NCBI RefSeq assembly: GCF_002854065.1
Contig: NZ_CP024147.1
From: Escherichia coli
GTDB taxonomy: Bacteria; Pseudomonadota; Gammaproteobacteria; Enterobacterales; Enterobacteriaceae
Strand: one strand, 5' to 3'
DNA length: 64,000 nt
Part shown: positions 1 to 61,402 of the stretch, in pieces
Layout of the letters: the number at the start of each line of letters is the position of its first letter
Numbering within the stretch: position 1 is the stretch's first letter
The notes under the pieces: generated by a model
Told to the model about the DNA's origin: nothing
The model's database searches: none
The model's input: the letters and a program-made list of their open reading frames with translations, nothing else
Program-made: the position numbers and the translations under genes

Positions 1-2969
1 TGTATATTGAGGTGAAGGATAATTACGGCAACGGAGTACCCCAGCAGGAGGTAACCCTCAGAGTATCACCAAGTGAAGGCGTGACCCTCAGTAATAACGC
101 TATATATACTACCAACCACGACGGCAATTTTTACGCAAGCTTTACCGCTACAAAAGCCGGGGTTTATCAAGTGACGGCAACCCTCGACAATGGCGATTCG
201 ATGCAACAAACAGTGACCTATGTGCCGAACGTCGCGAATGCTGAAATCACGCTGGCAGCCTCGAAGGATCCGGTGATTGCCGACAATAACGATCTCACGA
301 CACTAACAGCAACAGTCGCTGATACAGAGGGCAATGCGATAGCCAACACTGAGGTAACATTTACTCTGCCGGAAGATGTGAGGACGAACTTCACGCTGAG
401 CGATGGCGGTAAAGCGGTTACTGATGCCAATGGCAAAGCGAAAGTCACGCTGAAAGGTACAAAAGCAGGCGCTCATACTGTTACAGCATCGATAACTGGC
501 GGTAAGAGTGAGCAGTTGGTGGTGAACTTTACTGCGGATACGCTCACTGCGCAGGTTAATCTTAACGTTACCGAGGACAATTTTATCGCTAATAACGTCG
601 GGATGACCAGGCTGCAGGCAACAGTGACTGATGGAAACGGCAACCCGTTAGCCAATGAGGCGGTGACATTCACACTACCGGCAGATGTGAGCGCAAGCTT
701 TACTCTCGGACAAGGCGGTTCCGCCATTACTGACATCAACGGCAAGGCTGAAGTTACACTGAGCGGTACAAAATCCGGCACCTATCCCGTGACAGTTAGC
801 GTGAACAGTTACGGTGTCAGTGATACGAAGCCGGTGACTTTGATTGCCGATGCTGGTACCGCTAAACTGGCTGGTTTTACCGCATCATCGGGCTCATTTA
901 CCGCGAGCACAACCGAGGGCGCGACCCTGACGGCAAGCGTCACAGACGCTTACGGCAACCCGCTAGAAGGCATCATGGTCAATTTCCGCGGCCCCGCCAC
1001 CACGCTGAGTAACACCAGTGTCGAAACGGATGCTCAGGGTAAGGCAGAAATCCTTGTGACAAGCACCATTGCTGGAACGAAAGTAGTTACAGCTAATTTG
1101 GCAATCGCACCTACCGAAGCCGCCATTCGAATTTTAACTGTCAACGCAGATGTTGATTCTGCGACGATCACCAGTCTGGAAATGCCTGAAGGTCAGGTAA
1201 TAATCAGAGAACCCATAGCGGTTAAAGCACACGTCGACGACCAGTTTGGCAATCCAGTTGCTGACCAACTTGTGACATTCAGTGCAGAGCCGTCAAGTTT
1301 TAACATGGTCATTAGTCAGAATACGGTTTCTACGAATAGCCAGGGTATAGCTGAGGTCACCATGACGCCCGAAAGATACGGTTCGTATACTGTGAAAGCA
1401 TCCCTGGCGAATGGCTCCTCTTATGAGAAGGACCTGGTGGTAATCGATCTAAGACTAACACTCACGGCATCAAGTCAACTTATCGGCGTCAATGACCCAT
1501 CGGGAGCAACTCTGACTGTAAGGTTAACTCATGCAAACGGGGCTCCATTGAGCCATGAACTCGTTACCTTTAGCGTAACGCCCGAAGGTGCAACGTTAAG
1601 TAGCCAAACAGCGACAACCAACACTTCAGGTGAGGCACAAGTCGTTCTGACCAGCAATAAAGTCGGTACATATGCGGTGACAGCATCGATCCATAGCGGC
1701 GTAATTATTCAGACACAGACAACCGTGAAGGTTACTGGCAACCCAAGCACCGCACATGTTGCTAGTTTTATCGCTGATCCGTCGACTATCACGGCCAACA
1801 ATAGTGATATCAGCACGCTAAAGGCTACTGTTGAGGATGGCAGTGGTAACCTGGTCGAAGGGGTCAATGTAAACTTCGTCTTAAAAAGCGGCTCTGCCAC
1901 ATTGACGTCATTAACAGCGGTGACCGATCAAAACGGACTCGCGACAACGAGCGTTAGAGGAGCTATGACGGGGAGCGTCGCGGTAAGCGCAGAAACGAGC
2001 TATGGTGGAGCGCAAACAGTAGATATAACGCTGGTGGCAGGCCCGGCAGACGCTTCGCTGTCCGTCCTTAAGAACAACCGGTCATCACTGAAGGGGGACT
2101 TTACCGAAAGTGCTGAACTACATCTTGTTCTGCACGATCTATCAGGCCATCCGATCAATGTTTCTGAAGGGATGGAATTTGTGCAATCAGGTACCAACGT
2201 GCCCTATGTGCAAGTTAGTGCAATTGACTACAGCAAAAATTTCTCCGGCGAGTACAAAGCCACTGTTACAGGCGGCGGAGAGGGTATCGCAACGCTGATC
2301 CCCGTGTTGAATGGTGTTCACCAGGCAGGTCTGAATACCACGATAGAATTCATTAGCGCGGAAGCCAGACCAATGACCGGTACAGTGTCAGTCAATGGTG
2401 CGACCCTACCGGCAGCTTCATTCCCTTCGCAGGGATTTACCGGGGCGTATTATCAGTTGAATAATGACAACTTTGCACCAGGAAAAACGGCGGCTGATTA
2501 TGCGTTTTCAAGCACTGCCTCCTGGGTTGATGTTGATACTTCCGGTAAGGTGACATTCAAAAATGTCGGAGATAGAAATGCTGTAATAATCACGGCGACC
2601 CCAAGATCAGGTGGCGCTATTTACCAAACGCAAGTACGGGTGAAGGGCTGGTGGGTGAATCACGGTAATAACCTCATGCAATTAAGCCAGGCTGAAAACT
2701 ACTGCAGCAACCAGGTCGGTAATGGCTACAACCTTCCCCGCGCGGACCTTTTAAGCAATGGACACATGCGGCGCGAAATAGGGTCACTGTATGGTGAATG
2801 GGGAGATATGGGAAATTACATGAACGAAGCTGATTTTTATTCAATGGTATATTGGTCATCTAATTCTGCAGGCGCAGGCCAACAATACATTGTCTCCCTG
2901 GAAACAGGGACGCAAAACACTTATCAAACGCATGAATTTTTTTATGGGGCGTGTTATAAACAGATTTAA
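1..2969 (+). CDS. yeeJ: Large Ig-like (Big_1 repeat) adhesin, C-terminal ~985 aa; gene begins upstream of window
   Basis: Open frame runs from window start; tandem ~100-aa Ig-like repeats (motifs like VTATLDNG, TDANGKAKVTL); synteny with shiA/amn. The M at 12 is internal, not the start. Confidence 0.8.
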   Translation, partial: YIEVKDNYGNGVPQQEVTLRVSPSEGVTLSNNAIYTTNHDGNFYASFTATKAGVYQVTATLDNGDSMQQTVTYVPNVANAEITLAASKDPVIADNNDLTTLTATVADTEGNAIANTEVTFTLPEDVRTNFTLSDGGKAVTDANGKAKVTLKGTKAGAHTVTASITGGKSEQLVVNFTADTLTAQVNLNVTEDNFIANNVGMTRLQATVTDGNGNPLANEAVTFTLPADVSASFTLGQGGSAITDINGKAEVTLSGTKSGTYPVTVSVNSYGVSDTKPVTLIADAGTAKLAGFTASSGSFTASTTEGATLTASVTDAYGNPLEGIMVNFRGPATTLSNTSVETDAQGKAEILVTSTIAGTKVVTANLAIAPTEAAIRILTVNADVDSATITSLEMPEGQVIIREPIAVKAHVDDQFGNPVADQLVTFSAEPSSFNMVISQNTVSTNSQGIAEVTMTPERYGSYTVKASLANGSSYEKDLVVIDLRLTLTASSQLIGVNDPSGATLTVRLTHANGAPLSHELVTFSVTPEGATLSSQTATTNTSGEAQVVLTSNKVGTYAVTASIHSGVIIQTQTTVKVTGNPSTAHVASFIADPSTITANNSDISTLKATVEDGSGNLVEGVNVNFVLKSGSATLTSLTAVTDQNGLATTSVRGAMTGSVAVSAETSYGGAQTVDITLVAGPADASLSVLKNNRSSLKGDFTESAELHLVLHDLSGHPINVSEGMEFVQSGTNVPYVQVSAIDYSKNFSGEYKATVTGGGEGIATLIPVLNGVHQAGLNTTIEFISAEARPMTGTVSVNGATLPAASFPSQGFTGAYYQLNNDNFAPGKTAADYAFSSTASWVDVDTSGKVTFKNVGDRNAVIITATPRSGGAIYQTQVRVKGWWVNHGNNLMQLSQAENYCSNQVGNGYNLPRADLLSNGHMRREIGSLYGEWGDMGNYMNEADFYSMVYWSSNSAGAGQQYIVSLETGTQNTYQTHEFFYGACYKQI

Positions 2970-3230: not shown

Positions 3231-4283
3231 TCATATTCTCGCCAAAACACTTTTTAATGCCTTTGCGAATTCATCCAGACTTATATTGTCAATTTTTTGC
3301 CCAACGACGACTGACTCCGAAACATCGGCCATTGCGGGCCATCGCGTTTTGTAATCAGCATAAATTGCAACAACGGGGGTATTATAGGCACTTGCCATAT
3401 GTAATATTGAGGTGTCAGGAGTTATTGCGATATAAGCATCTTTTATGATTGCTGCTGAACGTTTAATCGAGGGTGATAAGGATAAACGGTAGACATTATT
3501 ATAACAATCCACTAATACCCTGGCTTTATCTTCCCCTTTTGGTCCATGAACGATCACTATTGGTATATCTGTTTCACTTTGAATTTTTTCTATTAGATTT
3601 TCTGCAATCGATAGTGAAAATGTACGATCCTGCGAGCTACCTTCTAAATTAAGCGCAATGTAAGATCCTAACGATCGCATTTCCTCGCGCACCTCATCGA
3701 GTACATCCTCACTTAGTGGCAATTCATATATTGGCCTGACTGCTGGAAAACCCGCCTCACGCATCATAAATGCCCATGTCATGGGTACGGGAGCCCGGAG
3801 ATTCTGATCCATCCGGGACGCGTTCTTACACACAGGGGAATAGCACTTCATGGTTAAACCAACAACCTGAAAATTCGTTTTTGCTTTCAACTGACTGATA
3901 AATAACATCGTTTTCAGGTTCTTTTTACGCATCGCCTCTATACAAAGATCCGGAGTACCGTATTGCTGTGTTATGTTCTTCGCTAAATCTTTTATTTCTT
4001 TTAATGTTGCGTGATCCTGCATAGTCATTGTGACTAATGTTAATTTAGTCTGTTCAAGTTTGAGCGCATTAAAGACTTCTAAATTAATTATCGACGTAAC
4101 AATTAGTAGATGCTTAATTTTATGCAATTCAAGCGCCCGAATAACAGGAAAGATGGCCATAGCATCGCCAATCTGATCGGGAATATGGATGACAACAAAG
4201 TCTGTTTTTTCAATATTGAAATTATAAGCTTTATAATCGTAGTAACTAAATGCAATACGTCTCAACAATGATACTAAAAACAT
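3231..4283 (-). CDS. yeeL: Glycosyltransferase family 9 (heptosyltransferase-like), apparently intact
   Basis: 371-aa ORF; start placed at internal ATG (4283) with GAGG-type RBS upstream; GT9-like C-terminal region; position between yeeJ and shiA. Confidence 0.65.
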   Translation of the reverse strand: MFLVSLLRRIAFSYYDYKAYNFNIEKTDFVVIHIPDQIGDAMAIFPVIRALELHKIKHLLIVTSIINLEVFNALKLEQTKLTLVTMTMQDHATLKEIKDLAKNITQQYGTPDLCIEAMRKKNLKTMLFISQLKAKTNFQVVGLTMKCYSPVCKNASRMDQNLRAPVPMTWAFMMREAGFPAVRPIYELPLSEDVLDEVREEMRSLGSYIALNLEGSSQDRTFSLSIAENLIEKIQSETDIPIVIVHGPKGEDKARVLVDCYNNVYRLSLSPSIKRSAAIIKDAYIAITPDTSILHMASAYNTPVVAIYADYKTRWPAMADVSESVVVGQKIDNISLDEFAKALKSVLARI

Positions 4284-4597
4284 AACTAACCTCGCCTCCC
4301 TACTGGTTATAATGCAATGCAGTCTATCAGAATCATCAGGGTGCAATTTTGTGCATATGCGGACTTTTATGTTTCATATCTCGAACCTGTGGGTCCTCTG
4401 CTTAATCCTTAAACAACACCAGCAACTCCCGCGCTTTCATCTTCCAGCGAATTTTTCATGTTGCCGCTAATCAGCCATAAAATCATTTGCAGATGCGCTC
4501 TGTCGAGGTAGTCTCATAAGGTTCGTTTATAGATCGACGGCAATGTGAGTTACCTTTTCCATACTAATTATAAAAAGACAGTACAAACAGGATCATT

Positions 4598-5914
4598 ATG
4601 GACTCCACGCTCATCTCCACTCGTCCCGATGAAAGGACGGTTTCGTTAAGTCGCGCCCGACGAGCTGCGTTAGGCAGTTTCGCTGGTGCCGTCGTCGACT
4701 GGTATGATTTTTTACTCTATGGCATCACCGCCGCACTGGTGTTTAATCGCGAGTTTTTCCCGCAAGTAAGCCCGGCGATGGGAACGCTCGCCGCATTTGC
4801 TACCTTTGGCGTCGGATTCCTTTTCCGTCCGCTCGGCGGTGTCATTTTCGGTCACTTTGGCGACCGACTGGGACGTAAGCGCATGTTAATGCTGACCGTC
4901 TGGATGATGGGCATCGCGACAGCCTTGATTGGTATTCTTCCTTCATTCTCGACCATTGGGTGGTGGGCACCTATTTTGCTGGTGACGCTGCGTGCCATTC
5001 AGGGATTTGCCGTCGGCGGCGAATGGGGAGGCGCGGCGTTGCTTTCCGTTGAAAGTGCACCGAAAAATAAAAAAGCCTTTTACAGTAGCGGTGTACAAGT
5101 TGGCTACGGTGTAGGTTTACTGCTTTCAACCGGACTGGTTTCATTGATCAGTATGATGACGACTGACGAACAGTTTTTAAGCTGGGGCTGGCGTATTCCT
5201 TTCCTGTTTAGCATCGTACTGGTACTGGGAGCATTGTGGGTGCGCAATGGCATGGAGGAGTCTGCGGAATTTGAACAACAGCAACATAATCAAGCGGCCG
5301 CGAAAAAACGCATCCCGGTTATCGAAGCGCTGTTACGACATCCCGGTGCTTTCCTGAAGATTATTGCGCTACGACTGTGCGAGTTGCTGACAATGTACAT
5401 CGTTACCGCGTTTGCACTTAATTATTCAACTCAGAATATGGGGTTACCGCGCGAACTTTTCCTTAATATTGGTTTGCTGGTAGGTGGATTAAGCTGCCTG
5501 ACAATTCCCTGTTTTGCCTGGCTTGCCGATCGTTTTGGTCGCCGCAGGGTTTATATCACAGGTGCGTTAATCGGAACGTTGAGCGCATTTCCTTTCTTTA
5601 TGGCGCTTGAAGCACAATCTATTTTCTGGATAGTTTTCTTCTCCATAATGCTGGCAAACATTGCGCATGACATGGTGGTGTGTGTGCAACAACCGATGTT
5701 TACCGAAATGTTTGGTGCCAGTTATCGCTATAGTGGCGCTGGAGTCGGTTATCAGGTTGCCAGTGTGGTTGGTGGTGGATTTACACCTTTTATTGCCGCT
5801 GCACTCATCACTTACTTTGCCGGGAACTGGCATAGCGTCGCCATTTATTTGCTGGCTGGATGCCTGATTTCCGCAATAACCGCTTTGTTGATGAAAGACA
5901 ATCAACGCGCTTGA
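4598..5914 (+). CDS. shiA: Shikimate transporter (MFS)
   Basis: 438-aa ORF with MFS sugar-transporter signature (GDRLGRKR), recognised as ShiA. Confidence 0.9.
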   Translation: MDSTLISTRPDERTVSLSRARRAALGSFAGAVVDWYDFLLYGITAALVFNREFFPQVSPAMGTLAAFATFGVGFLFRPLGGVIFGHFGDRLGRKRMLMLTVWMMGIATALIGILPSFSTIGWWAPILLVTLRAIQGFAVGGEWGGAALLSVESAPKNKKAFYSSGVQVGYGVGLLLSTGLVSLISMMTTDEQFLSWGWRIPFLFSIVLVLGALWVRNGMEESAEFEQQQHNQAAAKKRIPVIEALLRHPGAFLKIIALRLCELLTMYIVTAFALNYSTQNMGLPRELFLNIGLLVGGLSCLTIPCFAWLADRFGRRRVYITGALIGTLSAFPFFMALEAQSIFWIVFFSIMLANIAHDMVVCVQQPMFTEMFGASYRYSGAGVGYQVASVVGGGFTPFIAAALITYFAGNWHSVAIYLLAGCLISAITALLMKDNQRA

Positions 5915-8649: not shown

Positions 8650-9153
8650 TTATTGATAGTGTTTTATGTTCAGATAATGCCCGATGACTTTGTCATGCAG
8701 CTCCACCGATTTTGAGAACGACAGCGACTTCCGTCCCAGCCGTGCCAGGTGCTGCCTCAGATTCAGGTTATGCCGCTCAATTCGCTGCGTATATCGCTTG
8801 CTGATTACGTGCAGCTTTCCCTTCAGGCGGGATTCATACAGCGGCCAGCCATCCGTCATCCATATCACCACGTCAAAGGGTGACAGCAGGCTCATAAGAC
8901 GCCCCAGCGTCGCCATAGTGCGTTCACCGAATACGTGCGCAACAACCGTCTTCCGGAGCCTGTCATACGCGTAAAACAGCCAGCGCTGGCGCGATTTAGC
9001 CCCGACGTATCCCCACTGTTCGTCCATTTCCGCGCAGACGATGACGTCACTGCCCGGCTGTATGCGCGAGGTTACCGACTGCGGCCTGAGTTTTTTAAAT
9101 GGCGGAAAATCGTGTTGAGGCCAACGCCCATAATGCGGGCGGTTGCCCGGCAT
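8650..9153 (-). CDS. insB: IS1 transposase InsB
   Basis: 167-aa [19 protein letters not shown]... Confidence 0.9.
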
Positions 9154-9757: not shown

Positions 9758-9833
9758 TGGCTCCTCTGACTGGACTCGAACCAGTGACATACGGATTAAC
9801 AGTCCGCCGTTCTACCGACTGAACTACAGAGGA
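9758..9833 (-). tRNA. asnW: tRNA-Asn (GUU)
   Basis: Reverse complement of TCCTCTGTAGTTCAGTCGGTAGAACGGCGGACTGTTAATCCG...GGAGCCA; anticodon loop CUGUUAA; name by synteny. Confidence 0.9.
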
Positions 9834-11581: not shown

Positions 11582-11657
11582 TCCTCTGTAGTTCAGTCGG
11601 TAGAACGGCGGACTGTTAATCCGTATGTCACTGGTTCGAGTCCAGTCAGAGGAGCCA
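11582..11657 (+). tRNA. asnU: tRNA-Asn (GUU)
   Basis: 76-nt sequence identical to the other two tRNA-Asn copies, ends CCA. Confidence 0.9.
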
Positions 11658-13990: not shown

Positions 13991-14066
13991 TCCTCTGTAG
14001 TTCAGTCGGTAGAACGGCGGACTGTTAATCCGTATGTCACTGGTTCGAGTCCAGTCAGAGGAGCCA
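13991..14066 (+). tRNA. asnV: tRNA-Asn (GUU)
   Basis: Third identical 76-nt tRNA-Asn copy; followed by hairpin terminator 14070-14100. Confidence 0.9.
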
Positions 14067-18520: not shown

Positions 18521-19715
<1,195 letters not shown>

Positions 19716-24081: not shown

Positions 24082-25152
24082 TCAGGCCTCTTTGCCCTTC
24101 TCTATCGCTGAGGGCTTGTCAGGAAGCAATGCGCTTATACGTCCCTTAAGGTACTTGTACATTCTGACGTCGATGAATGCTGCGTATAAATACGCTAGCA
24201 CTATCGAGACAGCAATCATTTTTACCGCCCCCATAAATGGATCTCCCTCAACAATACCGGTAATCATCACAGGGAAATGGAGAAGGTACAGAGGGAAGCT
24301 GATAAACCCTAAAAACTGGACTGGTGCAGAGTAAAGGAACCGTTTAACCAGGGACTCATCATTCATGTAATCGACAGTTAGCAGGGGAAGAAATGCCACC
24401 ATGTAGAAATAATCCATCCTGTTGGTATGCGAAGGTTGAGCATAGAGCCCGGCAAAGCATACAAACAGACACATAGCCAAAAAAACATTCTTTTGAGGTA
24501 GTTTAGTGAAACTCTCGTACCATTTTAATTTTATGATCGAGTACATACCCGATCCCATCAAAAGACATGATGATGCAAAAACAAAATTGTACATCCCGAA
24601 AAGCTCTGGACTACCGAGCCCTCTGGCAGAAACAACAGCCAGATAAATAAATGCCAAAATAGAAATACATAACCTTGAAAGCGGCCCCATTCTCAAGAAC
24701 AGAACTGGAATCAACATGGACGCCCAAAATTCTATGCTGACACTCCACGAAGGTTCATTTATCAAATTGAATGATAATGGGGTAGACCCATGTATAAATG
24801 CTAAATTCGCTACCCATGTCCTGATACTAAATACGTAATCACCTGGCACATAACCACCATTAAGGCTATTTACGTAGTAAATGATTACCATTATCACTGA
24901 TGATATAAAGGTAAGAGGCCACAGTCTTGCCAGTCTATTCAAAAAATATGACGGGATAGACGCCCCATTTCTTACTGAGTGGGTAAGCACAAATCCCGAT
25001 ATGATGAAAAAATATGCAACAGCCAAGTGAGGGCCGTTGAATGGCCCATCATTTTTCCAACCAGTAACAGCATTGATGGCGTGATTTAGGAGCACTGCGC
25101 ATGCAAAAAGGCCGCGCAAACCATCAACAGCATAGAAGCGTTTAATTTCCAT
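24082..25152 (-). CDS. Acyltransferase family 3 membrane protein (OafA/Oac-like); candidate lysogenic-conversion O-acetyltransferase
   Basis: 356-aa multi-pass membrane ORF, N-terminal motif YAVDGLRGLFACAVLLNH typical of acyltransferase-3; AT-rich; sits at prophage end after the tail fibre gene; hairpin terminator 24057-24076. Confidence 0.7.
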   Translation of the reverse strand: MEIKRFYAVDGLRGLFACAVLLNHAINAVTGWKNDGPFNGPHLAVAYFFIISGFVLTHSVRNGASIPSYFLNRLARLWPLTFISSVIMVIIYYVNSLNGGYVPGDYVFSIRTWVANLAFIHGSTPLSFNLINEPSWSVSIEFWASMLIPVLFLRMGPLSRLCISILAFIYLAVVSARGLGSPELFGMYNFVFASSCLLMGSGMYSIIKLKWYESFTKLPQKNVFLAMCLFVCFAGLYAQPSHTNRMDYFYMVAFLPLLTVDYMNDESLVKRFLYSAPVQFLGFISFPLYLLHFPVMITGIVEGDPFMGAVKMIAVSIVLAYLYAAFIDVRMYKYLKGRISALLPDKPSAIEKGKEA

Positions 25153-25271
25153 AACAATTTATTTAAAAAAAGAAAAATTATACTAGAAATATATCATCAA
25201 CATCTATGCCATTGATGATTAAGTGATGGTTGTCACGGTTTTGTGTTTCTGGCTGGAATGCTGGCAGTGCT

Positions 25272-25460
25272 TTACTCGCTTGACTCAGGATCGGTGAATA
25301 CTCCATCTTCATAAATCCATCCAATTCTGCATGGTATTCCGTCTATTTTAACAACCTGATAATCATCAAAAATATGCCCCTCACCATCCCATATAACAAT
25401 ATTTACAACTATTCCATCTGTAATTAATGCATATCTCATGCAAACTCCTCCACAAGACAA
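25272..25460 (-). CDS. Small hypothetical phage protein downstream of tail fibre gene (possible tail-fibre assembly remnant)
   Basis: 62-aa ORF only; position where a tail-fibre chaperone is expected. Confidence 0.3.
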
Positions 25461-26362
25461 ATACCATCAGCACCTTCACCACCATAAAAACGCGTGGAGA
25501 AGACCTGCGTGTCATATGCGCCAGCGCCGCCACCGCCAGGGACTAATGCTTTCGCAATTCTCGGTGAATATACAGTACACTGCCCCGCTCTTCGGCTGCC
25601 ACCCCAAAAGCTTGAACCGCCGTACCCATTAAGGAACCTAGTATTATTTTGGCCATCTCCGCCATCTCCGCCGGCTAGATTTACATCACCACCAGACCCG
25701 GCAACTCCAACGCCGCCTGATGCATATACAGTGGAAGCAGTGGACGGGTTTCCGCCTGTGGCAACCATCCCACTAAATGTTGAGTTACCGCCTTTTGTTG
25801 CCTCAGTTCCGCCAGCACCGATAACCACGGCAAAGTTTGTGATGTCAGCAATATTGAACCATTTGATACCTGTAGCGCCTGCAGCCCCCCCAGCACCGGA
25901 AAAGTTATCGGTTGGGGAACCACTATTAAAAGCGCCACCTCCGCCACCACCCCCTCCCGTTAGAGTTACTTTGATGCGCTTCGTCAGCGGGTTTAGCGTT
26001 ACTGTTTTTGATGAGGTGATCCACTGCTCGGCAATCTTCCTACCTACGTATCCGTTGGTATCTCCCAAATCAAGGTTTGCGAGAGCCGTTTTCACCGTGC
26101 CATCCGATTTGATATCGCCAAACGGATTCTTGCGGCTTAACAGCAGAGCACGAAGCGCGGTAAGCAACTGGTCGTGCCGCGCCTTCTCCAGACTGGCACC
26201 AGATGCCTCAACAACGCTACAAAGTTCTTCCTGCAACATGTCAAAGTAGTCATCATCCAGATCGGTGGCAGGCGTGCCAGTCTGGGGGTTACCACGGGTA
26301 AAACCGTTCTTACCCGCGCCGAACTTATCCTTCTGCGCGGTTTTCGTGTCTATACGATGCAT
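25436..26362 (-). CDS. Phage tail fibre protein, glycine-rich
   Basis: 308-aa ORF with poly-Gly/GGxGG repeats and conserved tail-fibre N-terminus; follows baseplate genes. Confidence 0.65.
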
Positions 26363-26365
26363 GGA

Positions 26366-26950
26366 TTACTCCGGATATTTAAAAATTACGTAGGTATGCG
26401 ACGGGCAGAGTTTGTTAAGCACACACTCGACAACGGTGTCGCCCCAGATACGCAGTGCGGAATCACAGGGATCGCCACATGTCATCCAGGTGGTGTTGGT
26501 GGTGGTTGGCATGTTGACATGCCAGTAATACCGCCATTCCGGCGCATTCACCGCGTCAGTACAGGCCGATGAGCAGGTGAACGTGCTTTTGTCGTATCGC
26601 GTGATGGTGGCATCTGGTCTGCCCAGGGCAGCAAGCTGTGCAAGATAAAAATCCTCGTTGATGCCGCCCGCCAGGTTAACCTTCGCATCCAGCCGTTGCT
26701 GACGCTGGCGAAGGGTCTGCGTTCCCGCCGGAATACATTCATCCGGCAGACCGCACAGACGCTCCCAGCGGTTTATCAGTTCAGTGGTGGTGCGCGGATC
26801 CAGCTCCCGCATCAGGGCATCCGCACGCTGATGAACACGGGTTAATGACGGTGCCGCACCGGCAATCGCCGGATCGCTGGCTGACCACGCCGGACCGGGC
26901 GGCAACAGTGCCGATAACAGGCGGATGTAATCATCGTTTGTCACGTCCAT
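26366..26950 (-). CDS. Phage tail protein (Mu gp48 / YmfQ-like, DUF2313)
   Basis: 194-aa ORF in tail module between baseplate J and tail fibre. Confidence 0.5.
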
Positions 26951-27999
26951 GAAATCGTCCCCAGTACCGCCAGTTCGTTTTTCGCAATGGAGATATTGTC
27001 CACCGGTGCAAGCAACTGATGGCTGTATTCCCCGTTCGCACCGGAAATCGCCTCACTGATACGCGACACCTTCAGTTCTCCCTGCGGATAACCATCACGC
27101 AGCAGGAACGAACGCAACTCCGCGGTGATGGCAGCCCGTATTTCCGGTGTATCCGGCGTCACGCGGATATGAAAATCCACCGTATGTGCCACCGGCCTGA
27201 ACACATACAAGTCAGAACCTGCCACCGGGGCCAGTGGCCCGATATGTTGTATTGCCGCCGTTTCCGTTGATTCTTCCGGAATGGGATTAATCAGGTCACT
27301 GCTGGCAATCATCACACCGACAGTTCCCGTTCCCATCCAGTGACGGTATGTCCATGCGCGGGTAATGCCGGGCACTTCTTTAGCCCAGACGACATAGTCC
27401 CCGTCAGCCCCGCCCTGCGGCGTCCAGTAATACCGCTCAATGACGCGGGCGCGCCACGTTTCCAGATCTTCAGTATCGAATCCGCCAGTCAGGGTATCTG
27501 CAACACCGGAAGACGGCAGACCATTCACCGGCGTGACTAGGATTAATGCCGTACCGTCGTCAGCGTTACCGACCGCGCCTGCATTTGAGCAAGTGATCGG
27601 CACACGCAGGACACCACCGGAGCTGGTTGCATCGGCAGTTGCCGTGTACTGAACCAGGTCATCGCGCTGAATCACGCTCCCGGCAGTCACCTTCAGGCCA
27701 TCGCTGACACCTTCCCAGCGCATATACCCGCTGGCAGCCGTGGCCCCCTTGCGCGGACACCGTTTCATCGCAGCATGTCGCGCCAGCCAGGACTCATCGC
27801 ACAGGTCAGGCAGCATATTCATTGCCAGATAATCGATGTACCCGTAGACCGTATGCAGCGCCGCCGCATACACCTTTGCCCGCACGTCTTCATCCATGCG
27901 CCGGAGCGTGTTGCTGACGTCCAGCCTGGCGAATAAATCGTTACGGAGCATACTGATATTTTCTGCCAGCGTCGGGCGCTGAAATTCACTGTCCGCCAT
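26941..27999 (-). CDS. Baseplate J-like protein (Mu gp47-like)
   Basis: 352-aa ORF, position and size in Mu-like baseplate module. Confidence 0.55.
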
Positions 28000-28414
28000 G
28001 CGTTATCGCACTCCACAGATCATCAAAAGAAATCATTACCGGTCCGTCACGACGCCAGAGAGTGATACTGTTACCCAGTTCATTAATCCCGGTACGGCGG
28101 ATATCCAGATCAATACGGGACACCACGCCGTCATCAATCATCCATTGCAGGCATTCGCGGATATATCCCCTTACCGTCTGCACCAGCTGATTGGTCAGTT
28201 TGCTGCGCTGAAGCAGCCACAGTCGGGAGCCGTAACGGTCATTCTGTACCGCAGGCCAGGTATCCCCCCACCATCCCATCGGGACGTCGGCGTTGTCATC
28301 AGGCTCCGCCCGCCGCCAGGTAAACAGGGAAATCACCACGGCGCGGGTCAGCGGATCCAGCGGTGCGCTGGCGCAGGTGCGTTTACCGTTCACCGTCAGC
28401 CACAGTTCCATCAT
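27986..28414 (-). CDS. Phage baseplate protein (Mu gp46-like)
   Basis: 142-aa ORF overlapping neighbours, as in Mu-like baseplate operons. Confidence 0.5.
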   Translation of the reverse strand: MMELWLTVNGKRTCASAPLDPLTRAVVISLFTWRRAEPDDNADVPMGWWGDTWPAVQNDRYGSRLWLLQRSKLTNQLVQTVRGYIRECLQWMIDDGVVSRIDLDIRRTGINELGNSITLWRRDGPVMISFDDLWSAITHGGQ

Positions 28415-28959
28415 GCCTCCATCGCTTTATCAGGTTTGTCGGTGTTACTGCCCTGACCGTTCTCTCTGTGACGATGCCCGTTATAGGCAAGCCGCATCGC
28501 TGACATGGTGGTGCCGCCGGAGTCGCACAGGTCTTTCACCTGTCCGGTCACTTCCAGGTCCATTTCAAAACGTGCTTTAGGTGAATTGCGAAACGTGATC
28601 GTTTTACCTGCACCGTCCACCACGATCCCCTCCCGGGTCAGCGTCACGGACTGCCCCTGATCGTCATAGACAGCCACCTCACCCGTCTGCAGCCCTTTCA
28701 GGCGGTAGCGCCGGTCCGACACCGTAACAACCACCGCATGAGAACGGTCGCCATCCGGAAACAACACCACCGCTTCCGCACCGCTGTTTGCCCTTGCGGT
28801 AAAACCGTAGGGTTCAAGATGTTCAACCCCGGCTTTGGGTTCACCGGCAATCAGGGACACATCCACGGTCTGACATTTCGTGGCGGCACTGATGCTTTTC
28901 ACCACGGCCCGCCCAATCAGGCCGAGGAGTTGTCGCTGCATGGCTTCAATCGTCCTCAT
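28411..28959 (-). CDS. Baseplate assembly protein V / spike (Mu gp45-like)
   Basis: 182-aa ORF; position in module. Confidence 0.5.
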   Translation of the reverse strand: MRTIEAMQRQLLGLIGRAVVKSISAATKCQTVDVSLIAGEPKAGVEHLEPYGFTARANSGAEAVVLFPDGDRSHAVVVTVSDRRYRLKGLQTGEVAVYDDQGQSVTLTREGIVVDGAGKTITFRNSPKARFEMDLEVTGQVKDLCDSGGTTMSAMRLAYNGHRHRENGQGSNTDKPDKAMEA

Positions 28960-30038
28960 CAGAACGGGTCCTCCTGTACTCTGGCTTTTTTCTTTTTCCG
29001 CGCGCCGGGGGCTTCGGGTTCAGGCAGATAAGCATCAGGTGGGCCGACACGGATTTCCGTCAGGGTGCCGTTCTGGTCCTGAGTAAACGTGACTTCCGAA
29101 ACAAGCAGTTCGGTATTGTCGAAACCACAGACCGGATCAAAGACAATCACCCGCTGGTTGGGCTGCCACAGCGTACCGTTACACTGTCGCCAGCCCTGCA
29201 CCACATAGGTGGTTTCATCCGTCCGCGCCGCCCGTTGTCTGGCTTCAAAGTCCGCACGGGCAATACAGCCTGCCCCCGTAGCCTGCCCTGTCTGCCTGAT
29301 ATACATCGGACGGTAACGGGCAATAAATGCGTCCTCTGTGCGGGCCCGCAGCGCGGTGGTGGTGGCCTCACCGAAATCATCGTCGTTTCCGGCACGCTGC
29401 CCCGCCACCTGGTAAACAGAAAACCGCTCCCGGATACTCTTCTCCGTATCGCAGGAAAGGATGTTTTCCCCGAGTACCAGCGCAGTATGTGCCCGAGTTG
29501 AGCCAATACCGCCAATCACCAGCCTGCCGTGCGGGTCGTCGTAAGCCAGTGCCTGCTGCTGACCGAGTATTTTGTTGATTACCTCAATCACCGTTTCACC
29601 GTGATCAGGCTGAACATCAGGAATAACACCCGACGGCGCACCGCTGTTCACCACCTCAATGCCGAAAGGCGCAGCAAGCGCCTGCGCAATCTGCACCAGC
29701 GAGCGTCCGTTAAACTGTGTCGGTTCGGCTGCACAGTCAATCAGGTCAGCCGTCAGACTACGTCCGACAATACCGGTGCTGACCGAACGGGAATCGTAAC
29801 GAACGGGCGTCGCCTCCACCCAGCCGGTGATCACCAGCTCATCACCAATCAGCACTTCCACTTTTGAACCGTTTTTAATGCGCGGCTGAAGCGTGGTGAT
29901 ACCCTCATCTCCCGGCCACTGGCGGGTGATCTCCACACTGAAATCCCGCGCCAGCCGTTCAATACCGGCACCGATGCGCACCGATGTCCAGCCATTCCAC
30001 TCCCGGCCATTTACCCGTAGCGTGACATTGTCGTTCAT
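28959..30038 (-). CDS. Phage tail protein (Mu gp44 / P2 gpD-like)
   Basis: 359-aa ORF; position between DNA-circulation and baseplate genes. Confidence 0.5.
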   Translation of the reverse strand: MNDNVTLRVNGREWNGWTSVRIGAGIERLARDFSVEITRQWPGDEGITTLQPRIKNGSKVEVLIGDELVITGWVEATPVRYDSRSVSTGIVGRSLTADLIDCAAEPTQFNGRSLVQIAQALAAPFGIEVVNSGAPSGVIPDVQPDHGETVIEVINKILGQQQALAYDDPHGRLVIGGIGSTRAHTALVLGENILSCDTEKSIRERFSVYQVAGQRAGNDDDFGEATTTALRARTEDAFIARYRPMYIRQTGQATGAGCIARADFEARQRAARTDETTYVVQGWRQCNGTLWQPNQRVIVFDPVCGFDNTELLVSEVTFTQDQNGTLTEIRVGPPDAYLPEPEAPGARKKKKARVQEDPF

Positions 30039-31375
30039 TGCACTGGCACCTTCAGAGGGATCACCGGCACAAAGCCGGGATGCGTAATGGCATTACGCCG
30101 GATAATGTCCGCGTCACGCGCCGCGTTATCAAACCAGGTCGCCGCCAGCACCAGCGCGGGTAAAACCTCATCCGGTGTGCGCTGAATGATCCGTGCAGAC
30201 TGTTCAAGGCGCGTGTTGATATCCGCATTCAGATCTGCTTTCACCCGGCGCAGCGCCAGAAACAGCGCATCACTGGTTGTACGGGACAACTCCTTATCAA
30301 TTGCCGTATTCAGTGTGTCGCGAATGTCAGTCAGTTCTTCCCACGTCGGCAGGTCAACCGTGTTTTTCACCGCCGGTGCATTGTTCAGTGCCGGATGCGT
30401 GACGGAAGGCCAGCCAGTGCTCTGCGCGGGTGTTGTTGCCTGCCCCACTGCGGCATTCTGCATCACCGCGGAAGTTGTTGGCGCAGGCAATCGGGTGACG
30501 GCATACGCCGCTTCGCTGATTGCGGTCGTACGAAGGGTGCTGGCAACCACGTTACGCTGCTGCGTCGCCGTGGCGGTGGTTTTACTGTCCGTTTTCCAGA
30601 CGCCGCGCGGTTGCAGATCGCTGCCGAGGCTGACACCGGAAAGCGTTTTGATCATGGTGACCAGGTCGCTGGCGTTACCATAAAGGCGTTTCCCGGTACG
30701 CCACATTTTCTGCACCTGCTCAACGAAATTTTTGCCTGACGATGGCGGCGGCAGAAGTACCGAGATATCCCCCTGCAACAGCCTGGCGGCATCCGATACG
30801 GCAGAATCCACCACTTTCATCGCATCAGAAACATACCCCAGCATTATGCTGGCATTACCGATAACGTCGTTCTGCACGAAATCCGCAACACCATCGATAC
30901 TGAAACCGCTGAAGCTGTCACTGATGCAGTCATCCAGTGCAGAACAGGATGACATCAGCGTCTGCGCCGTCGCCGCACCTGATGTGGGGTAAGAGAGTTC
31001 TCCTGCTTCGACAAACTTCAGGTCAAAGCGGACAATACGCCCTTCACTTTTCGATGTGCTGACCCGAACTTCCCCGTCAACACAGACTTTCAGCTCACCA
31101 TATGTCGGGTGGACAAGCGTGCCTGGACCGGGTTTATTCAGCGCGTCAATCAGGCGATCGCGCTGGTCAAAGCAGTCATCTCCCACCACATAAGCTGTGA
31201 TGGACGGGCGGAAAGTGATTTTCCCCAGGTCTTCGGTATAGGGTTTGTCGCGGTTTGGGTATTCATGCGTTTCAACCCGACGTCCTACCGGGGCCCCTTC
31301 ATCTTCTACCTTGAACGGAACGCCGCGAAACGACGCTTCAACCAGTCTGTCTTTCCACGCCATTGTCTGCACCAA
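30035..31375 (-). CDS. Phage DNA circulation protein (Mu gp43 / N-like)
   Basis: 446-aa ORF; the expected upstream tape-measure/sheath/head genes are missing, replaced by IS1. Confidence 0.5.
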   Translation of the reverse strand: MVQTMAWKDRLVEASFRGVPFKVEDEGAPVGRRVETHEYPNRDKPYTEDLGKITFRPSITAYVVGDDCFDQRDRLIDALNKPGPGTLVHPTYGELKVCVDGEVRVSTSKSEGRIVRFDLKFVEAGELSYPTSGAATAQTLMSSCSALDDCISDSFSGFSIDGVADFVQNDVIGNASIMLGYVSDAMKVVDSAVSDAARLLQGDISVLLPPPSSGKNFVEQVQKMWRTGKRLYGNASDLVTMIKTLSGVSLGSDLQPRGVWKTDSKTTATATQQRNVVASTLRTTAISEAAYAVTRLPAPTTSAVMQNAAVGQATTPAQSTGWPSVTHPALNNAPAVKNTVDLPTWEELTDIRDTLNTAIDKELSRTTSDALFLALRRVKADLNADINTRLEQSARIIQRTPDEVLPALVLAATWFDNAARDADIIRRNAITHPGFVPVIPLKVPVQ

Positions 31376-31534
31376 TATGATTTGTTATAAGCTACTCTGT
31401 TTCAGACGCTTCTTTCGAAGCGCCAGAGAACATTTACCTTTAAGGAGAGGTATAAATGGAAATGTTTTTGCCGTTAATACTGGGTTTGTTGCTAGCCGTT
31501 TTCATAGGACGGTGGGCTTGGTAATGACTCCAAC

Positions 31535-32038
31535 TTATTGATAGTGTTTTATGTTCAGATAATGCCCGATGACTTTGTCATGCAGCTCCACCGATTTTGA
31601 GAACGACAGCGACTTCCGTCCCAGCCGTGCCAGGTGCTGCCTCAGATTCAGGTTATGCCGCTCAATTCGCTGCGTATATCGCTTGCTGATTACGTGCAGC
31701 TTTCCCTTCAGGCGGGATTCATACAGCGGCCAGCCATCCGTCATCCATATCACCACGTCAAAGGGTGACAGCAGGCTCATAAGACGCCCCAGCGTCGCCA
31801 TAGTGCGTTCACCGAATACGTGCGCAACAACCGTCTTCCGGAGCCTGTCATACGCATAAAACAGCCAGCGCTGGCGCGATTTAGCCCCGACATAGCCCCA
31901 CTGTTCGTCCATTTCCGCGCAGACGATGACGTCACTGCCCGGCTGTATGCGCGAGGTTACCGACTGCGGCCTGAGTTTTTTAAGTGACGTAAAATCGTGT
32001 TGAGGCCAACGCCCATAATGCGGGCAGTTGCCCGGCAT
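31535..32038 (-). CDS. insB: IS1 transposase InsB
   Basis: 167-aa ORF. Confidence 0.9.
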
Positions 32039-32232
32039 CCAACGCCATTCATGGCCATATCAATGATTTTCTGGTGCGTACCGGGTTGAGAAGCGGTGTA
32101 AGTGAACTGCAGTTGCCATGTTTTACGGCAGTGAGAGCAGAGATAGCGCTGATGTCCGGCGGTGCTTTTGCCGTTACGCACCACCCCGTCAGTAGCTGAA
32201 CAGGAGGGACAGCTGATAGAAACAGAAGCCAC
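31957..32232 (-). CDS. insA: IS1 InsA
   Basis: 91-aa ORF. Confidence 0.9.
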
Positions 32233-32327
32233 TGGAGCACCTCAAAAACACCATCATACACTAAATCAGTAAGTTGGCAGCATCACCCGTCAGATGAAAG
32301 AATTAATCGGTAACGAAGGAGATATTC

Positions 32328-32498
32328 ATGTCACTTGCAACCACAGTGAAGGAGAGCAAGTTACAGAGACGCATGTACACGCAGAAAGCTCTCTGGTATC
32401 GCCATAATGGCGACCGCGAAGGAATGCGGGTATGCCTTAATTTGTCCCGAGTCGAAGTATTAAATCAGCGTTATTTCCTTGGGCCGTGTCCATTCTGA
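32328..32498 (+). CDS. Small hypothetical phage protein (56 aa), not in ORF track
   Basis: ATG at 32328 preceded by GAAGGAG RBS; translated by hand MSLATTVKESKLQRRMYTQKALWYRHNGDREGMRVCLNLSRVEVLNQRYFLGPCPF; directly upstream of recombination genes. Confidence 0.4.
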   Translation: MSLATTVKESKLQRRMYTQKALWYRHNGDREGMRVCLNLSRVEVLNQRYFLGPCPF

Positions 32499-32506
32499 GG
32501 TGAATT

Positions 32507-33214
32507 ATGGATTTGAATAAATTCGATGAGCCATTCAGCCCTGAAGATATCGAATGGCGAATACAGCAAAGCGGTAAAACACGCGATGGCAAGGTGTGGG
32601 CTATGGTGCTGGCTTATGTAACGAACCGGGCAATCATGAAACGCCTGAACGATGTTTGCGGCAAAGCAGGATGGCGCAATGAATACCGCGATATTCCCAA
32701 CAACGGCGGAGTTGAATGCGGCATATCAATCAGGATTGATTCCGAATGGGTAACCAAATGGGATGCTGCTGAAAACACGCAGGTAGAAGCCGTCAAAGGT
32801 GGTCGTTCCGGCGCAATGAAGCGCGCTGCCGTTCAATGGGGAATCGGTCGGTATCTGTATAACCTTGAGGAAGGTTTCGCACAAACATCTCTCGATAAAA
32901 AGCAGGGGTGGCACAGGGCAAAACTGAAGGATGGAACAGGATTTTACTGGCTCCCTCCATCGCTGCCGGGATGGGCAATACCAGCATCAGATAACAAACC
33001 ATCACCAGAAAATACCAACCAGAAATCTCCATCGGTTGACTGCGAACAAATCCTGAAAGACTTCAGCGATTATGCATCAACAGAAACTGACAAGAAAAAA
33101 CTCATCGAGCGTTATCAGCGTGACTGGCAATTAATGGCTGGCAACGAGGAGGCGCAGGCTAAATGCGTTCAGGTAATGAGCATCAGAGTTAACGAACTAA
33201 AACAGGCGGCATAA
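32507..33214 (+). CDS. Rad52/Rad22-type single-strand annealing protein (phage recombinase)
   Basis: 235-aa ORF immediately upstream of a phage SSB gene; sequence resembles Rad52-family phage proteins. Confidence 0.55.
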   Translation: MDLNKFDEPFSPEDIEWRIQQSGKTRDGKVWAMVLAYVTNRAIMKRLNDVCGKAGWRNEYRDIPNNGGVECGISIRIDSEWVTKWDAAENTQVEAVKGGRSGAMKRAAVQWGIGRYLYNLEEGFAQTSLDKKQGWHRAKLKDGTGFYWLPPSLPGWAIPASDNKPSPENTNQKSPSVDCEQILKDFSDYASTETDKKKLIERYQRDWQLMAGNEEAQAKCVQVMSIRVNELKQAA

Positions 33215-33721
33215 ATGGCAAGCAGAGGCGTAAATAAGGTGATTATCCTTGGTCGGGTAGGACAAGACCCGGAAGTTCGATACTCACCATCAGGAACAGC
33301 GTTCGCTAACCTGACAATAGCCACGTCAGAACAATGGCGAGATAAAAATACTGGCGAGCAAAAGGAATTGACTGAATGGCATCGTGTTGCTGTATCCGGG
33401 AAACTGGCTGAGGTCGTGGGGCAGTATGTGAAAAAAGGTGATCAGATTTATTTCGAGGGAATGCTGAGAACCAGAAAGTGGAAAGACCAGTCAGGGCAAG
33501 ACCGTTACACAACCGAGGTTCATGTCGGAATTAATGGCGTGATGCAAATGCTTGGCGGCATTGGCGACAGCAAACAACAAGCAGCCAGCAGGCAATCACA
33601 GAAGCCACAGCAGCAATCATCACCAGCACAACACAACGAACCTCCGATGGATTTTGACGACGATATACCCTTTGCACCAGTAACTCTCCCCTTCCCTCGT
33701 CACGCTATTCACGCAATTTAA
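33215..33721 (+). CDS. ssb: Single-stranded DNA-binding protein (phage SSB)
   Basis: 168-aa ORF with OB-fold N-terminus ([18 protein letters not shown]...) and acidic C-terminal tail DFDDDIPF. Confidence 0.85.
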
Positions 33722-33734
33722 TCAGGAGAAAATC

Positions 33735-34031
33735 ATGCCAGCGCCTCTGTATGGTGCGGATGACGCGCGCCGCTGTTCCGGCAATTCCGTATCGGAGGTG
33801 CTGGATAAATTCAGGAAAAACTACAACCGGATAATGTCGCTACCGCAGGAAACGAAAGAGGAAAAGGAATTTCGCCACTGTATATGGCTTGCAGAGAAAG
33901 AAGAACGCGAGCGAATTTACCAGACATCAATCCGACCATTCCGCAAAGCCACATATACCCACTTCCCTGAATATATCGACCCGCGCCTGCGTAATTACCG
34001 CTCACGCTATGGCGCTATCAGTAATGACTGA
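33735..34031 (+). CDS. Hypothetical phage protein
   Basis: 98-aa ORF in co-oriented phage early-gene string. Confidence 0.4.
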
Positions 34032-34040
34032 GGAATTTAC

Positions 34041-34205
34041 CATGAGAGGACTTGCATACAATCCCGGAATTCTTCCGGCAGAAATGATTATTCGCCAACG
34101 CGTAAAGCCAATGCCATCGAGAGAGGAATTGCTTAAGAGAAAGAGTTTCGGTTCTGTTAATGACAACAAATATCTGAATGCGATGTGGCTGAGTGGGAAG
34201 AAATG
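34041..34205 (+). CDS. Hypothetical small phage protein
   Basis: 54-aa in-frame segment from ATG 34041 within ORF 33889-34206; start uncertain. Confidence 0.3.
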
Positions 34206-34685
34206 AAACAAATGACACTAATTGAGATGGATGGATTTCTGAAAGGTAAATGCATCCCATGTGATTTAAAGGTTAACGAAACAAACGCTGAATATCTTGT
34301 GCGTAAGTTCGGTGAACTTGAATCAAAACTAGAAACGGCGTTGCGGGAGTGTAGTTCTGCTGGAATCACGATTGATAACCTTGAGGCCAAGTGCGCGAAG
34401 ATGGCTGCTGAAAATACCTCGCTTAAGCAATCTGAGAAGGAATTTAATGACTTTTGTCGTGAGGAGTTTAGCGAATGGGAAGATGATGTTACTGAAACCC
34501 CAGCCACCGATGCTTTCCTGGCTGAAGTACGGGCGCAGGGGGTAGAGATGTACGCAGATAACCTCGACAACGGAGCAGACGACGCAGAACGAGGTGGTTT
34601 TGATTATGCCGCTAAGTTTCTACGCGGTGAGGCGTCTAGTGTACGCTTGTTCGCCGACCAGCTTCGCAAAGGAGGCAACCAGTGA
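34185..34685 (+). CDS. Ead/Ea22-like phage protein (start may be ATG 34203)
   Basis: 166-aa ORF with coiled-coil/acidic features typical of lambdoid Ea22-like proteins. Confidence 0.5.
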
Positions 34686-35161
34686 GCAAGATTAACTATC
34701 AGGCACTGCGTGAGGCGGCGGAACGTGCAATTCCAGCAATGGAACGCCTGTTAATGTTGCCAGTTGATGATGATTTGTTAAGTGAACAGGAACTTAAAGA
34801 TTACGGTGTGGATATTGATGCGCTCAACGCCTTCAAATTTCTGACCGGACCAGAAACCGTGCTGGCGCTGCTGGATGAGCTGGAAAGAAAACAGCAATAC
34901 ATCAAATCCCGAGACCAGGAGAACGAGGATATTGCGCTAACGGTAGGGAAGCTGCGCGTTGAGCTGGAAGCCGCAGAGAAGCGCATTGCTGAGCTGGAGT
35001 TGCGGGAGGTTGTGCTTCCGCAATGCTATAGCATGTTGCATCGCGTCGATTTTGACGAGCCTTACCACACTGAAATGGTTTACAGGCAGCATCAGGTTCT
35101 TGAGGCACTGCACAACGCTGGAATAAACGTCACCGAAGCAGGTAAAGGAGAGGCATCATGA
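34682..35161 (+). CDS. Ead/Ea22-like phage protein
   Basis: 159-aa ORF, coiled-coil region (LRVELEAAEKRIAELELRE); overlaps neighbours by 4 nt. Confidence 0.5.
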   Translation: MSKINYQALREAAERAIPAMERLLMLPVDDDLLSEQELKDYGVDIDALNAFKFLTGPETVLALLDELERKQQYIKSRDQENEDIALTVGKLRVELEAAEKRIAELELREVVLPQCYSMLHRVDFDEPYHTEMVYRQHQVLEALHNAGINVTEAGKGEAS

Positions 35162-35670
35162 GCACTATCACAAGAGAATGGCTGCAGCAGGCTATCAACG
35201 ATTATGAAAGCGTTCGTGATGAGCTTCCTTTCGGGCTTGATGATTACCAGGGGAATATCCTGGCTGCCCTGCGTATCGCACTGGCATCGCTGGAAGCAGA
35301 GCCGGTGGCGTGGAAGGTAACATTCACGCAAATTGACCGTGAATATAACACGTTCACTGGTATGTATTCTGACAAAGCAGAAGTCGAACGGTGGGTGCGG
35401 CTGCATAAAGCATGTAATTTTCGGGCAGATATAACACCGCTTTATACCGCCAAGCCAGTGCCGGTAACTCCGGATGGTTGGATAAGCTGTAGTGAGCGAA
35501 TGCCAGAGGACGGTCAGCACGTAATTATTTTATGTGATGGCGCATTCGTTCTTTATGCGCAATATCGAGACGGAGAGTTTTTCGATATTGTCCGCAATGG
35601 TGATGAATTTTTCGAAACACAGAGTCGCAATGTAACCGACTGGATGCAACTACCAGAACCTCCCCTTTGA
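35158..35670 (+). CDS. DUF551-type phage protein
   Basis: 170-aa ORF; C-terminal region (PDGWISCSERMPEDGQHVIILCDG) resembles DUF551. Confidence 0.5.
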   Translation: MSTITREWLQQAINDYESVRDELPFGLDDYQGNILAALRIALASLEAEPVAWKVTFTQIDREYNTFTGMYSDKAEVERWVRLHKACNFRADITPLYTAKPVPVTPDGWISCSERMPEDGQHVIILCDGAFVLYAQYRDGEFFDIVRNGDEFFETQSRNVTDWMQLPEPPL

Positions 35671-35766
35671 TAGCTAAGCTTATACATATCTTTTACATCA
35701 GCAATCTATTGTTAATCTCCAATCAATGTTACGTTGTCATCTCTCTCATGCTTTGGAGGTAGTGAT

Positions 35767-35958
35767 ATGTCTTGTCCAAAATGCGGTTCTGGAAATATTG
35801 CAAAAGAAAAAACAATGCGTGGATGGTCTGATGATTATGTGTGCTGCGATTGCGGATACAACGACTCTAAAGACGCATTTGGAGAGCGTGGTAAAAACGA
35901 GTTTGTCAAAATTAATAAAGAACGCGAAGGCGGTGATGCTGCCAACTTACTGATTTAG
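35767..35958 (+). pseudogene. Phage zinc-ribbon protein with C-terminus altered by IS1 insertion (native end ...EREGNEKS reconstructed across the IS)
   Basis: CxxC...CxxC motif (MSCPKCGSG...YVCCDCGY); GGAGGT RBS 6 nt upstream of ATG 35767; reading frame runs into the IS1 terminal repeat. Confidence 0.55.
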
Positions 35959-35986
35959 TGTATGATGGTGTTTTTGAGGTGCTCCA

Positions 35987-36262
35987 GTGGCTTCTGTTTC
36001 TATCAGCTGTCCCTCCTGTTCAGCTACTGACGGGGTGGTGCGTAACGGCAAAAGCACTGCCGGACATCAGCGCTATCTCTGCTCTCACTGCCGTAAAACA
36101 TGGCAACTGCAGTTCACTTACACCGCTTCTCAACCCGGTACGCACCAGAAAATCATTGATATGGCCATGAATGGCGTTGGATGCCGGGCAACCGCCCGCA
36201 TTATGGGCGTTGGCCTCAACACGATTTTCCGCCATTTAAAAAACTCAGGCCGCAGTCGGTAA
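35987..36262 (+). CDS. insA: IS1 InsA
   Basis: 91-aa ORF. Confidence 0.9.
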
Positions 36263-36684: not shown

Positions 36685-36823
36685 GTTGGAGTCATTACCC
36701 GCGAAGGCAACGAAAAAAGCTAATTTATTTATTCATATATGAAAACAATGTAATAAATATTCGAATTGAAGAATTGAAAGAACACCAAGCCGCCTGATGG
36801 CGGTTTTTTATTGGAGACAAGAA

Positions 36824-61400: not shown

Positions 61401-61402
61401 AA

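Follow-up and report, generated by a model that had tools for sequence, protein, structure and literature searches.

The yeeL gene carried by the 64-kb stretch of Escherichia coli DNA analysed in this study (hereafter called the window) is open over its entire length. From sequence comparison and structural modelling we are confident that its predicted product, YeeL, is a divergent glycosyltransferase family 9 (GT9) enzyme with the two-domain GT-B fold. The intact allele is ordinary and already known. It is the majority, already annotated state of the gene in E. coli; it is not special to the window strain, and K-12 is the exception. As read from the alignment of the two alleles, it is a TAA at codon 235 that makes K-12 yeeL a pseudogene. 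As to its role, YeeL may well be an accessory GT9 enzyme that modifies the LPS core, and this is the reading that we consider reasonably probable.

Reading frame of yeeL and the lesion of the K-12 allele

On the minus strand of the window, the ORF list gives a single uninterrupted frame at 3231-4346, which has 371 codons when counted from a TTG and ends with the TGA stop at 3231-3233. The real start is most likely the ATG at 4283-4281, giving a protein of 350 aa. This is because the ribosome-binding motifs GGGAGG (4300-4295) and GAGG (4293-4290) precede the ATG, PGAP calls the same 350-aa CDS (annotated as WP_099145435.1) in the genome of CUWW06, which is 100% identical over yeeL, homologues in other genera start at the same Met in the alignment, and the TTG is TGG in K-12. 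The TTG at 4346 was rejected as the start on the last three of these grounds. An open frame of 350 codons in DNA with a G+C content of 38.8% is far beyond chance; the G+C content of the whole window is 48.9%. A preliminary description of this DNA spoke of an uninterrupted frame of about 350-370 codons with a plausible ribosome-binding site, which agrees with the two codon counts on the minus strand and with the GGGAGG/GAGG motifs found before the ATG at 4283. The features of the region are as follows.

3231..4283, minus strand: yeeL CDS, 350 aa plus TGA (3231-3233), predicted divergent family-9 glycosyltransferase (ORF list, Pfam, CDS of CUWW06, AlphaFold2)
4284..4346, minus strand: in-frame upstream extension to the TTG, probably untranslated (TTG is TGG in K-12; homologues and PGAP start at 4283)
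4290..4300, minus strand: ribosome-binding region GGGAGG-C-GAGG, with GAGG 6 nt before the ATG (read from sequence)
3579..3581, minus strand: codon 235, CAA (Gln) in the window and TAA in K-12 (pairwise alignment of the window and MG1655)

The neighbours of yeeL in the window are the 3' part of yeeJ (12-2969, plus strand) on one side and shiA (4598-5914, plus strand), amn and yeeN on the other, and the gene order yeeJ, yeeL, shiA, amn is the same as in K-12. This synteny and a nucleotide identity of 96.8% to the K-12 gene b4497 place the window gene in the Escherichia yeeL orthologue group. A simple promoter scan of the 314-bp spacer between yeeL and shiA gave no convincing promoter, a terminator scan for yeeL gave nothing convincing, and Rfam gave no RNA family within or close to yeeL. 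Elsewhere in the window, three tRNA-Asn genes at 9758-9833 (minus strand), 11582-11657 (plus strand) and 13991-14066 (plus strand) correspond to the asnW, asnU and asnV positions. They, the sRNA STnc240 (44025-44101, minus strand) and the his operon leader (45248-45369, plus strand) are all placed as K-12 synteny predicts.

The annotation of K-12 MG1655 marks yeeL (b4497, NC_000913.3 2052276-2053328) as a pseudogene. The K-12 gene occupies the same locus between yeeJ and shiA, and its span of 1053 nt equals that of the window gene. Alignment of the two over the 1116-nt frame revealed 36 substitutions and no indel, in agreement with the identity given above. One of the 36 substitutions, at window position 3581, changes codon 235 from CAA (Gln) in the window to TAA in K-12; the window gene reads through at this codon, and the two alleles also differ by 14 amino-acid replacements. 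A frameshift as the cause of the K-12 pseudogene was rejected, since the lengths are equal and there is no indel. The product of the K-12 allele would stop at residue 234. Because this truncation precedes the donor-binding motif Pro289-Asp-Thr-Ser-x-x-His295, K-12 YeeL should be inactive. The preliminary description had spoken of yeeL as a split pseudogene in K-12, and this was borne out: b4497 is not intact, the window gene contains no internal frameshift, and the K-12 frame is interrupted by an in-frame nonsense codon. The value of the analysis as a correction lies in this point: K-12 yeeL is disabled by one nonsense codon (Gln235 to stop) and not by a frameshift.

Family, fold and conserved residues of YeeL

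YeeL scores 29.9 bits (E 4.4e-7) with the Pfam family PF01075 (Glyco_transf_9), whose cut-off is 22, over residues 207-321 only. The match is weak and confined to the C-terminal half of the protein. The models for heptosyltransferases I, II and III and for RfaQ gave scores far below their cut-offs: 39.7 bits against 185.3 for NCBIfam TIGR02193 (heptosyltransferase I), 19.5 against 134.6 for NCBIfam TIGR02195 (heptosyltransferase II), 17.2 against 170.2 for TIGR02201 and 15.9 against 467 for PRK10422. YeeL as an orthologue of WaaC, WaaF or WaaQ was rejected on these equivalog scores, and because of them the donor and the acceptor of YeeL are not transferable by orthology. The gene is also located between yeeJ and shiA and not in a waa (rfa) cluster. 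Close relatives are few. Only 29 matches at E <=1e-30 were found among 1.84 billion representative proteins, many of which are E. coli fragments, and full-length relatives fall quickly to 21-35% identity.

The residues that are shared within the subfamily are those expected of a GT9 enzyme. In a 31-member YeeL alignment, G39, D40, N212, P289, D290, T291, H295, S298, A299 and P303 are invariant, and the positions with near-complete conservation include D16, Y17 and R220; the window YeeL has all of these residues. Three sites correspond to known GT9 structures, namely G39-D40, R220 at the position of WaaC Lys192, and D290-T291...H295 at WaaC 261-266. The last of these aligns with D261-T262-G-L-S-H266 of WaaC and also with WaaF. 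Their positions in the window are as follows.

4164..4169, minus strand: Gly39-Asp40, invariant; aligns with the GD of the Veillonella GT9 protein 3tov; Asp40 is a candidate catalytic base
3624..3626, minus strand: Arg220, nearly invariant; aligns with WaaC Lys192, a donor-phosphate contact (profile alignment to 2gt1)
3399..3419, minus strand: Pro289-Asp290-Thr291-Ser-Ile-Leu-His295, GT9 nucleotide-sugar-binding motif; P289, D290, T291 and H295 invariant; downstream of the K-12 stop

An AlphaFold2 model built on the 31-member subfamily alignment (pLDDT 94.5, pTM 0.92) has two Rossmann-like domains, as in the GT-B fold, and an extra N-terminal helix. The top Foldseek matches to this model in the PDB were 3TOV, WaaF (1PSW) and WaaC (2GT1/6DFE), with TM scores of 0.65-0.73 at about 14% identity. 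A search of the PDB with the single YeeL sequence gave only WaaF, at E 1.6, so that a profile search was needed; the subfamily profile detected 3tov (1.5e-12), WaaC (5e-9) and WaaF (7e-9), and in these matches the motifs were in register. The best match, 3TOV of Veillonella parvula, extends over nearly the full length of YeeL including the Gly-Asp (TM 0.73). However, it shares only 14% identity with YeeL and is itself uncharacterised, and it adds nothing on the substrate.

WaaC and WaaF thus share with YeeL the GT-B fold, an N-terminal Gly-Asp, a basic residue at the position of WaaC Lys192 and a C-terminal Asp-Thr-(Gly/Ser)-x-x-His. YeeL differs from them in its low identity of about 14%, in its location outside the waa cluster, in being dispensable, and in the extra N-terminal helix of about 27 residues, which contains the conserved Asp16-Tyr17. 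The family-9 assignment of the preliminary description is upheld by the Pfam score above the cut-off, by the modelled GT-B fold and by the retained GT9 motifs. GT9 in the CAZy classification also includes non-heptosyl transferases. The term 'heptosyltransferase-like', as far as sequence can tell, describes the family and fold of YeeL and not a demonstrated donor sugar.

Prevalence, recurrent loss and selection

A 1601-nt query across the gene matched the yeeL locus in 5343 of 5426 complete E. coli genomes, and 4931 genomes covered at least 80% of the query. In RefSeq, the gene is annotated almost everywhere in E. coli as 'glycosyltransferase family 9 protein'. The 350-aa YeeL protein cluster has 10,923 member sequences, and 118 contigs in public databases already carry the exact YeeL protein of the window, under the name 'MULTISPECIES: glycosyltransferase family 9 protein [Escherichia]'. 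As a rough estimate from an evenly spaced sample (n = 40 records), about 70-75% of genomes seem to retain uninterrupted yeeL.

The remaining alleles carry lesions of several kinds. The exact K-12 61-mer with the TAA was found in 765 genomes (14%), non-laboratory isolates included, and this number is a lower bound for the stop allele. In one natural isolate with the K-12 stop allele, PGAP flags yeeL with 'internal stop'. Other lesions in E. coli are IS1-associated truncations, IS insertions at the locus and deletions, and 'partial' forms are found in Shigella sonnei. A further case is CUWW06 (NZ_CP182139.1), which is the closest relative and the only database genome that is 100% identical across yeeL. 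Here a 1195-bp IS5 with a CTAA duplication lies between the ribosome-binding site and the ATG of yeeL (locus L021, 4290-5488). The insertion point corresponds to window positions 4286-4289, and the window is without this IS5. The yeeL gene of CUWW06 has lost its translation signals through the IS5, yet PGAP calls the CDS intact. Since yeeL has been lost repeatedly, through a nonsense mutation in the K-12 clade and, in other lineages, through IS insertions and deletions, any function of the gene is dispensable.

IS elements are also found at other places in the window. There are four IS1 transposase ORFs, at 8650-9153 (minus strand), 31535-32038 (minus strand), 36181-36684 (plus strand) and 41755-42258 (plus strand), and one IS5 transposase ORF at 18667-19647 (minus strand). 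This IS load is unusually high for the 64 kb, and the IS1 after yeeN is common to CUWW06.

The record of loss raises the question of whether the intact frame is a relic, in decay or without function, that is open in the window only because it has not yet been disabled. The independent and recurrent lesions (K-12-type nonsense in at least 765 genomes, IS1-associated truncations, IS insertions), the IS5 in the closest relative, the 'partial' forms of Shigella sonnei and the low G+C content of yeeL would all fit such a relic. The pattern of substitution, however, does not. By the Nei-Gojobori method, dN/dS of yeeL was 0.17-0.21 among the window, K-12 and Nissle alleles, and about 0.06-0.10 in comparisons with Pseudocitrobacter, Erwinia and a 72%-identical Escherichia variant, in which dS is saturated. 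These low values indicate, as far as sequence comparison goes, that yeeL is under purifying selection and is maintained where intact, despite its frequent loss. In addition, every invariant catalytic residue is kept in the window YeeL, and full-length orthologues persist in several genera. A phenotype signal also speaks against a relic: in a TraDIS study of the ST131 strain EC958, the hyper-motile pool was enriched for Tn5 insertions in the intact yeeL gene with a logFC of 7.46, a signal that was not followed up in that study (PMC5425062). The values of dN/dS and the conservation of residues disfavour the relic, and we regard it as an unlikely explanation of the intact frame. The suggestion of the preliminary description that this strain may keep a functional heptosyltransferase-like enzyme is supported by the invariant residues, the GT9 fold and the purifying selection, from which we infer that the enzyme is probably functional.

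Genomic context and possible role of YeeL

The linkage of yeeL is not conserved across nine genomic contexts. In Pseudocitrobacter the order is mtfA, yeeL, shiA, amn, without yeeJ. The 72%-identical Escherichia variant likewise lacks yeeJ at the locus and has yeeL flanked by hchA and mtfA; in one further genome the flanking genes are maeB and the eut operon. The gene that yeeL follows in Erwinia persicina and Rosenbergiella encodes an MFS transporter. An MFS gene directly adjoins yeeL in four contexts (window 4598-5914; loci L004, 8479-9789; L005, 8678-9847; L018, 6636-7841), for which chance is a possible explanation: it is the divergent shiA in E. coli and Pseudocitrobacter, and Rosenbergiella and Erwinia persicina have a different MFS_1 gene, about 155 bp upstream of yeeL and in the same orientation. 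More distant relatives, at 29-33% identity, sit in LPS/LOS-type clusters together with a second GT9 and with GT2, GT8, WaaL/Wzy_C-like, WecG and Bac_transf proteins. Overall, yeeL looks like an orphan single-gene cassette of low G+C content, and its adjacency to yeeJ looks incidental.

The neighbourhood of yeeJ nevertheless bears on one possible role. BAHT enzymes, such as TibC for TibA and Aah for AIDA-I, are GT9-related and are encoded beside their adhesin substrates. Only 262 bp separate yeeL from the 3' end of yeeJ, which codes for an inverse autotransporter adhesin, so YeeL might be a heptosyltransferase that glycosylates YeeJ in the same manner. However, yeeJ and yeeL are convergent and do not form an operon, and no yeeJ-like gene adjoins the orthologues in Pseudocitrobacter, Erwinia, Rosenbergiella or the 72%-identical Escherichia variant. 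The order mtfA-yeeL-shiA of Pseudocitrobacter suggests that asnT-yeeJ was inserted beside an older yeeL. The two genes also decay separately: in E. coli Nissle, yeeL is intact and yeeJ is reduced to a beta-domain fragment and a frameshifted Ig-like pseudogene (L009, 175-2982), whereas in K-12 the reverse is found. No TibC chain was found at E values up to 10 in the YeeL profile search of the PDB, TibC was absent from the top 50 Foldseek matches, and no Cys cluster is conserved across the YeeL subfamily. TibC and Aah resemble YeeL in the GT9 relation and in having the gene beside an adhesin gene; YeeL differs from them in that neither its profile nor its top structural matches detected them, in that it has no conserved Cys cluster, and in the absence of co-inheritance of yeeL with yeeJ. 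The absence of co-inheritance and of similarity to TibC disfavours YeeJ as the substrate, and we consider this role very improbable.

Another role is suggested by the occurrence of yeeL in Erwinia aphidicola (CP188307.1; locus L003, 7800-12400), where a 61%-identical orthologue lies on the opposite strand between the tail-fibre gene H and the sheath gene FI of a P2-like tail cluster. Lysis and repressor genes are present in this cluster and capsid genes are absent, so that it may be a tailocin. We take the site of this yeeL to be the one where P2 carries the Z/fun conversion gene. YeeL could then be a mobile surface-receptor modifier, which alters the LPS core and thereby the susceptibility to phages or tailocins, in the style of lysogenic conversion. 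The movement of yeeL as a single low-G+C cassette among unrelated sites fits this role, and the PHROGs family phrog_27389 (function unknown) matches YeeL over its full length with 768 bits. The phrog, however, probably derives from an over-extended prophage call. The tail cluster of Erwinia is a single observation, yeeL of E. coli lies outside any prophage, and PADLOC gave no defence-system match for YeeL. General carriage of yeeL by phages was rejected, since tblastn of 50,697 phage genomes (INPHARED) gave no YeeL match and IMG/VR contained only distant, partial GT9 relatives (26-33% identity) and no close homologue. Taken with these points, a receptor modifier of this kind seems to us quite unlikely.

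The window itself contains a prophage remnant at 24082-38596, between dacD and sbcB, which is interrupted by IS1 copies. Its contents are an acyltransferase-3 gene (24082-25152), a Mu/e14-like baseplate and tail region (about 25436-31375) and an integrase gene (37418-38596). In CUWW06, the same prophage extends through head and lysis genes.

The reading that we favour, an accessory enzyme acting on the LPS core, rests for its acceptor on two hints, the charge of the N-terminal domain and the LPS/LOS-type clusters of the relatives. The pI of the N-domain is 9.4 and that of the C-domain is 4.9, and a basic N-domain is weak evidence for the binding of an anionic glycolipid. In the mechanism that we propose, YeeL would be a cytoplasmic enzyme, and its C-terminal domain would bind a nucleotide-activated sugar, most likely ADP-heptose, and the basic N-terminal domain would bind an anionic envelope glycolipid, most likely the inner or outer core of LPS. 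Asp40, which we take to be the counterpart of WaaC Asp13, would serve as the general base as that residue does in WaaC. Transfer of the sugar to the LPS-core acceptor would yield a non-essential, strain-variable decoration of the core. The hyper-motility signal of EC958 is a phenotypic hint in favour of this reading; the weak Pfam match, the low equivalog scores, the location outside the waa cluster, the unrelated surroundings of close orthologues, the frequent loss and the negative promoter scan count against it. In the literature searched for yeeL we found no biochemical or functional study; its use as an integration site in K-12 and the one TraDIS entry were the only records. A more far-reaching proposal is that YeeL founds a narrowly distributed, uncharacterised GT9 subfamily, and that the cassette adds a non-stoichiometric sugar to the LPS core, changing phage or tailocin sensitivity and motility. 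To this proposal in its entirety we attach a low probability.

Apart from yeeL, the window carries an O-antigen cluster at 55418-63961 (minus strand). Its products include a GmhA-like SIS isomerase, a GHMP kinase, a nucleotidyltransferase, a GmhB-like phosphatase and a GDP-mannose-4,6-dehydratase-like enzyme, and by sequence this set has the appearance of a pathway for GDP-heptose/6-deoxy-heptose. GT1/GT4 enzymes and a 719-aa fusion of GT2 with an FkbM methyltransferase are also encoded there. The cluster presumably resembles those of heptose-containing O antigens of the ABC-transporter route, such as O52.

In conclusion, the discovery value of the intact frame is small, because intact yeeL is the normal state of E. 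coli and both the intact gene and the K-12 pseudogene are already annotated. Engineering of K-12 and W3110 makes wide use of the yeeL locus as a 'neutral' site for integration (PMC12492688), and in most wild strains this site is a conserved gene with an intact frame. If YeeL does add a sugar to the LPS core, the nonsense allele would add to the hidden surface defects of laboratory K-12.
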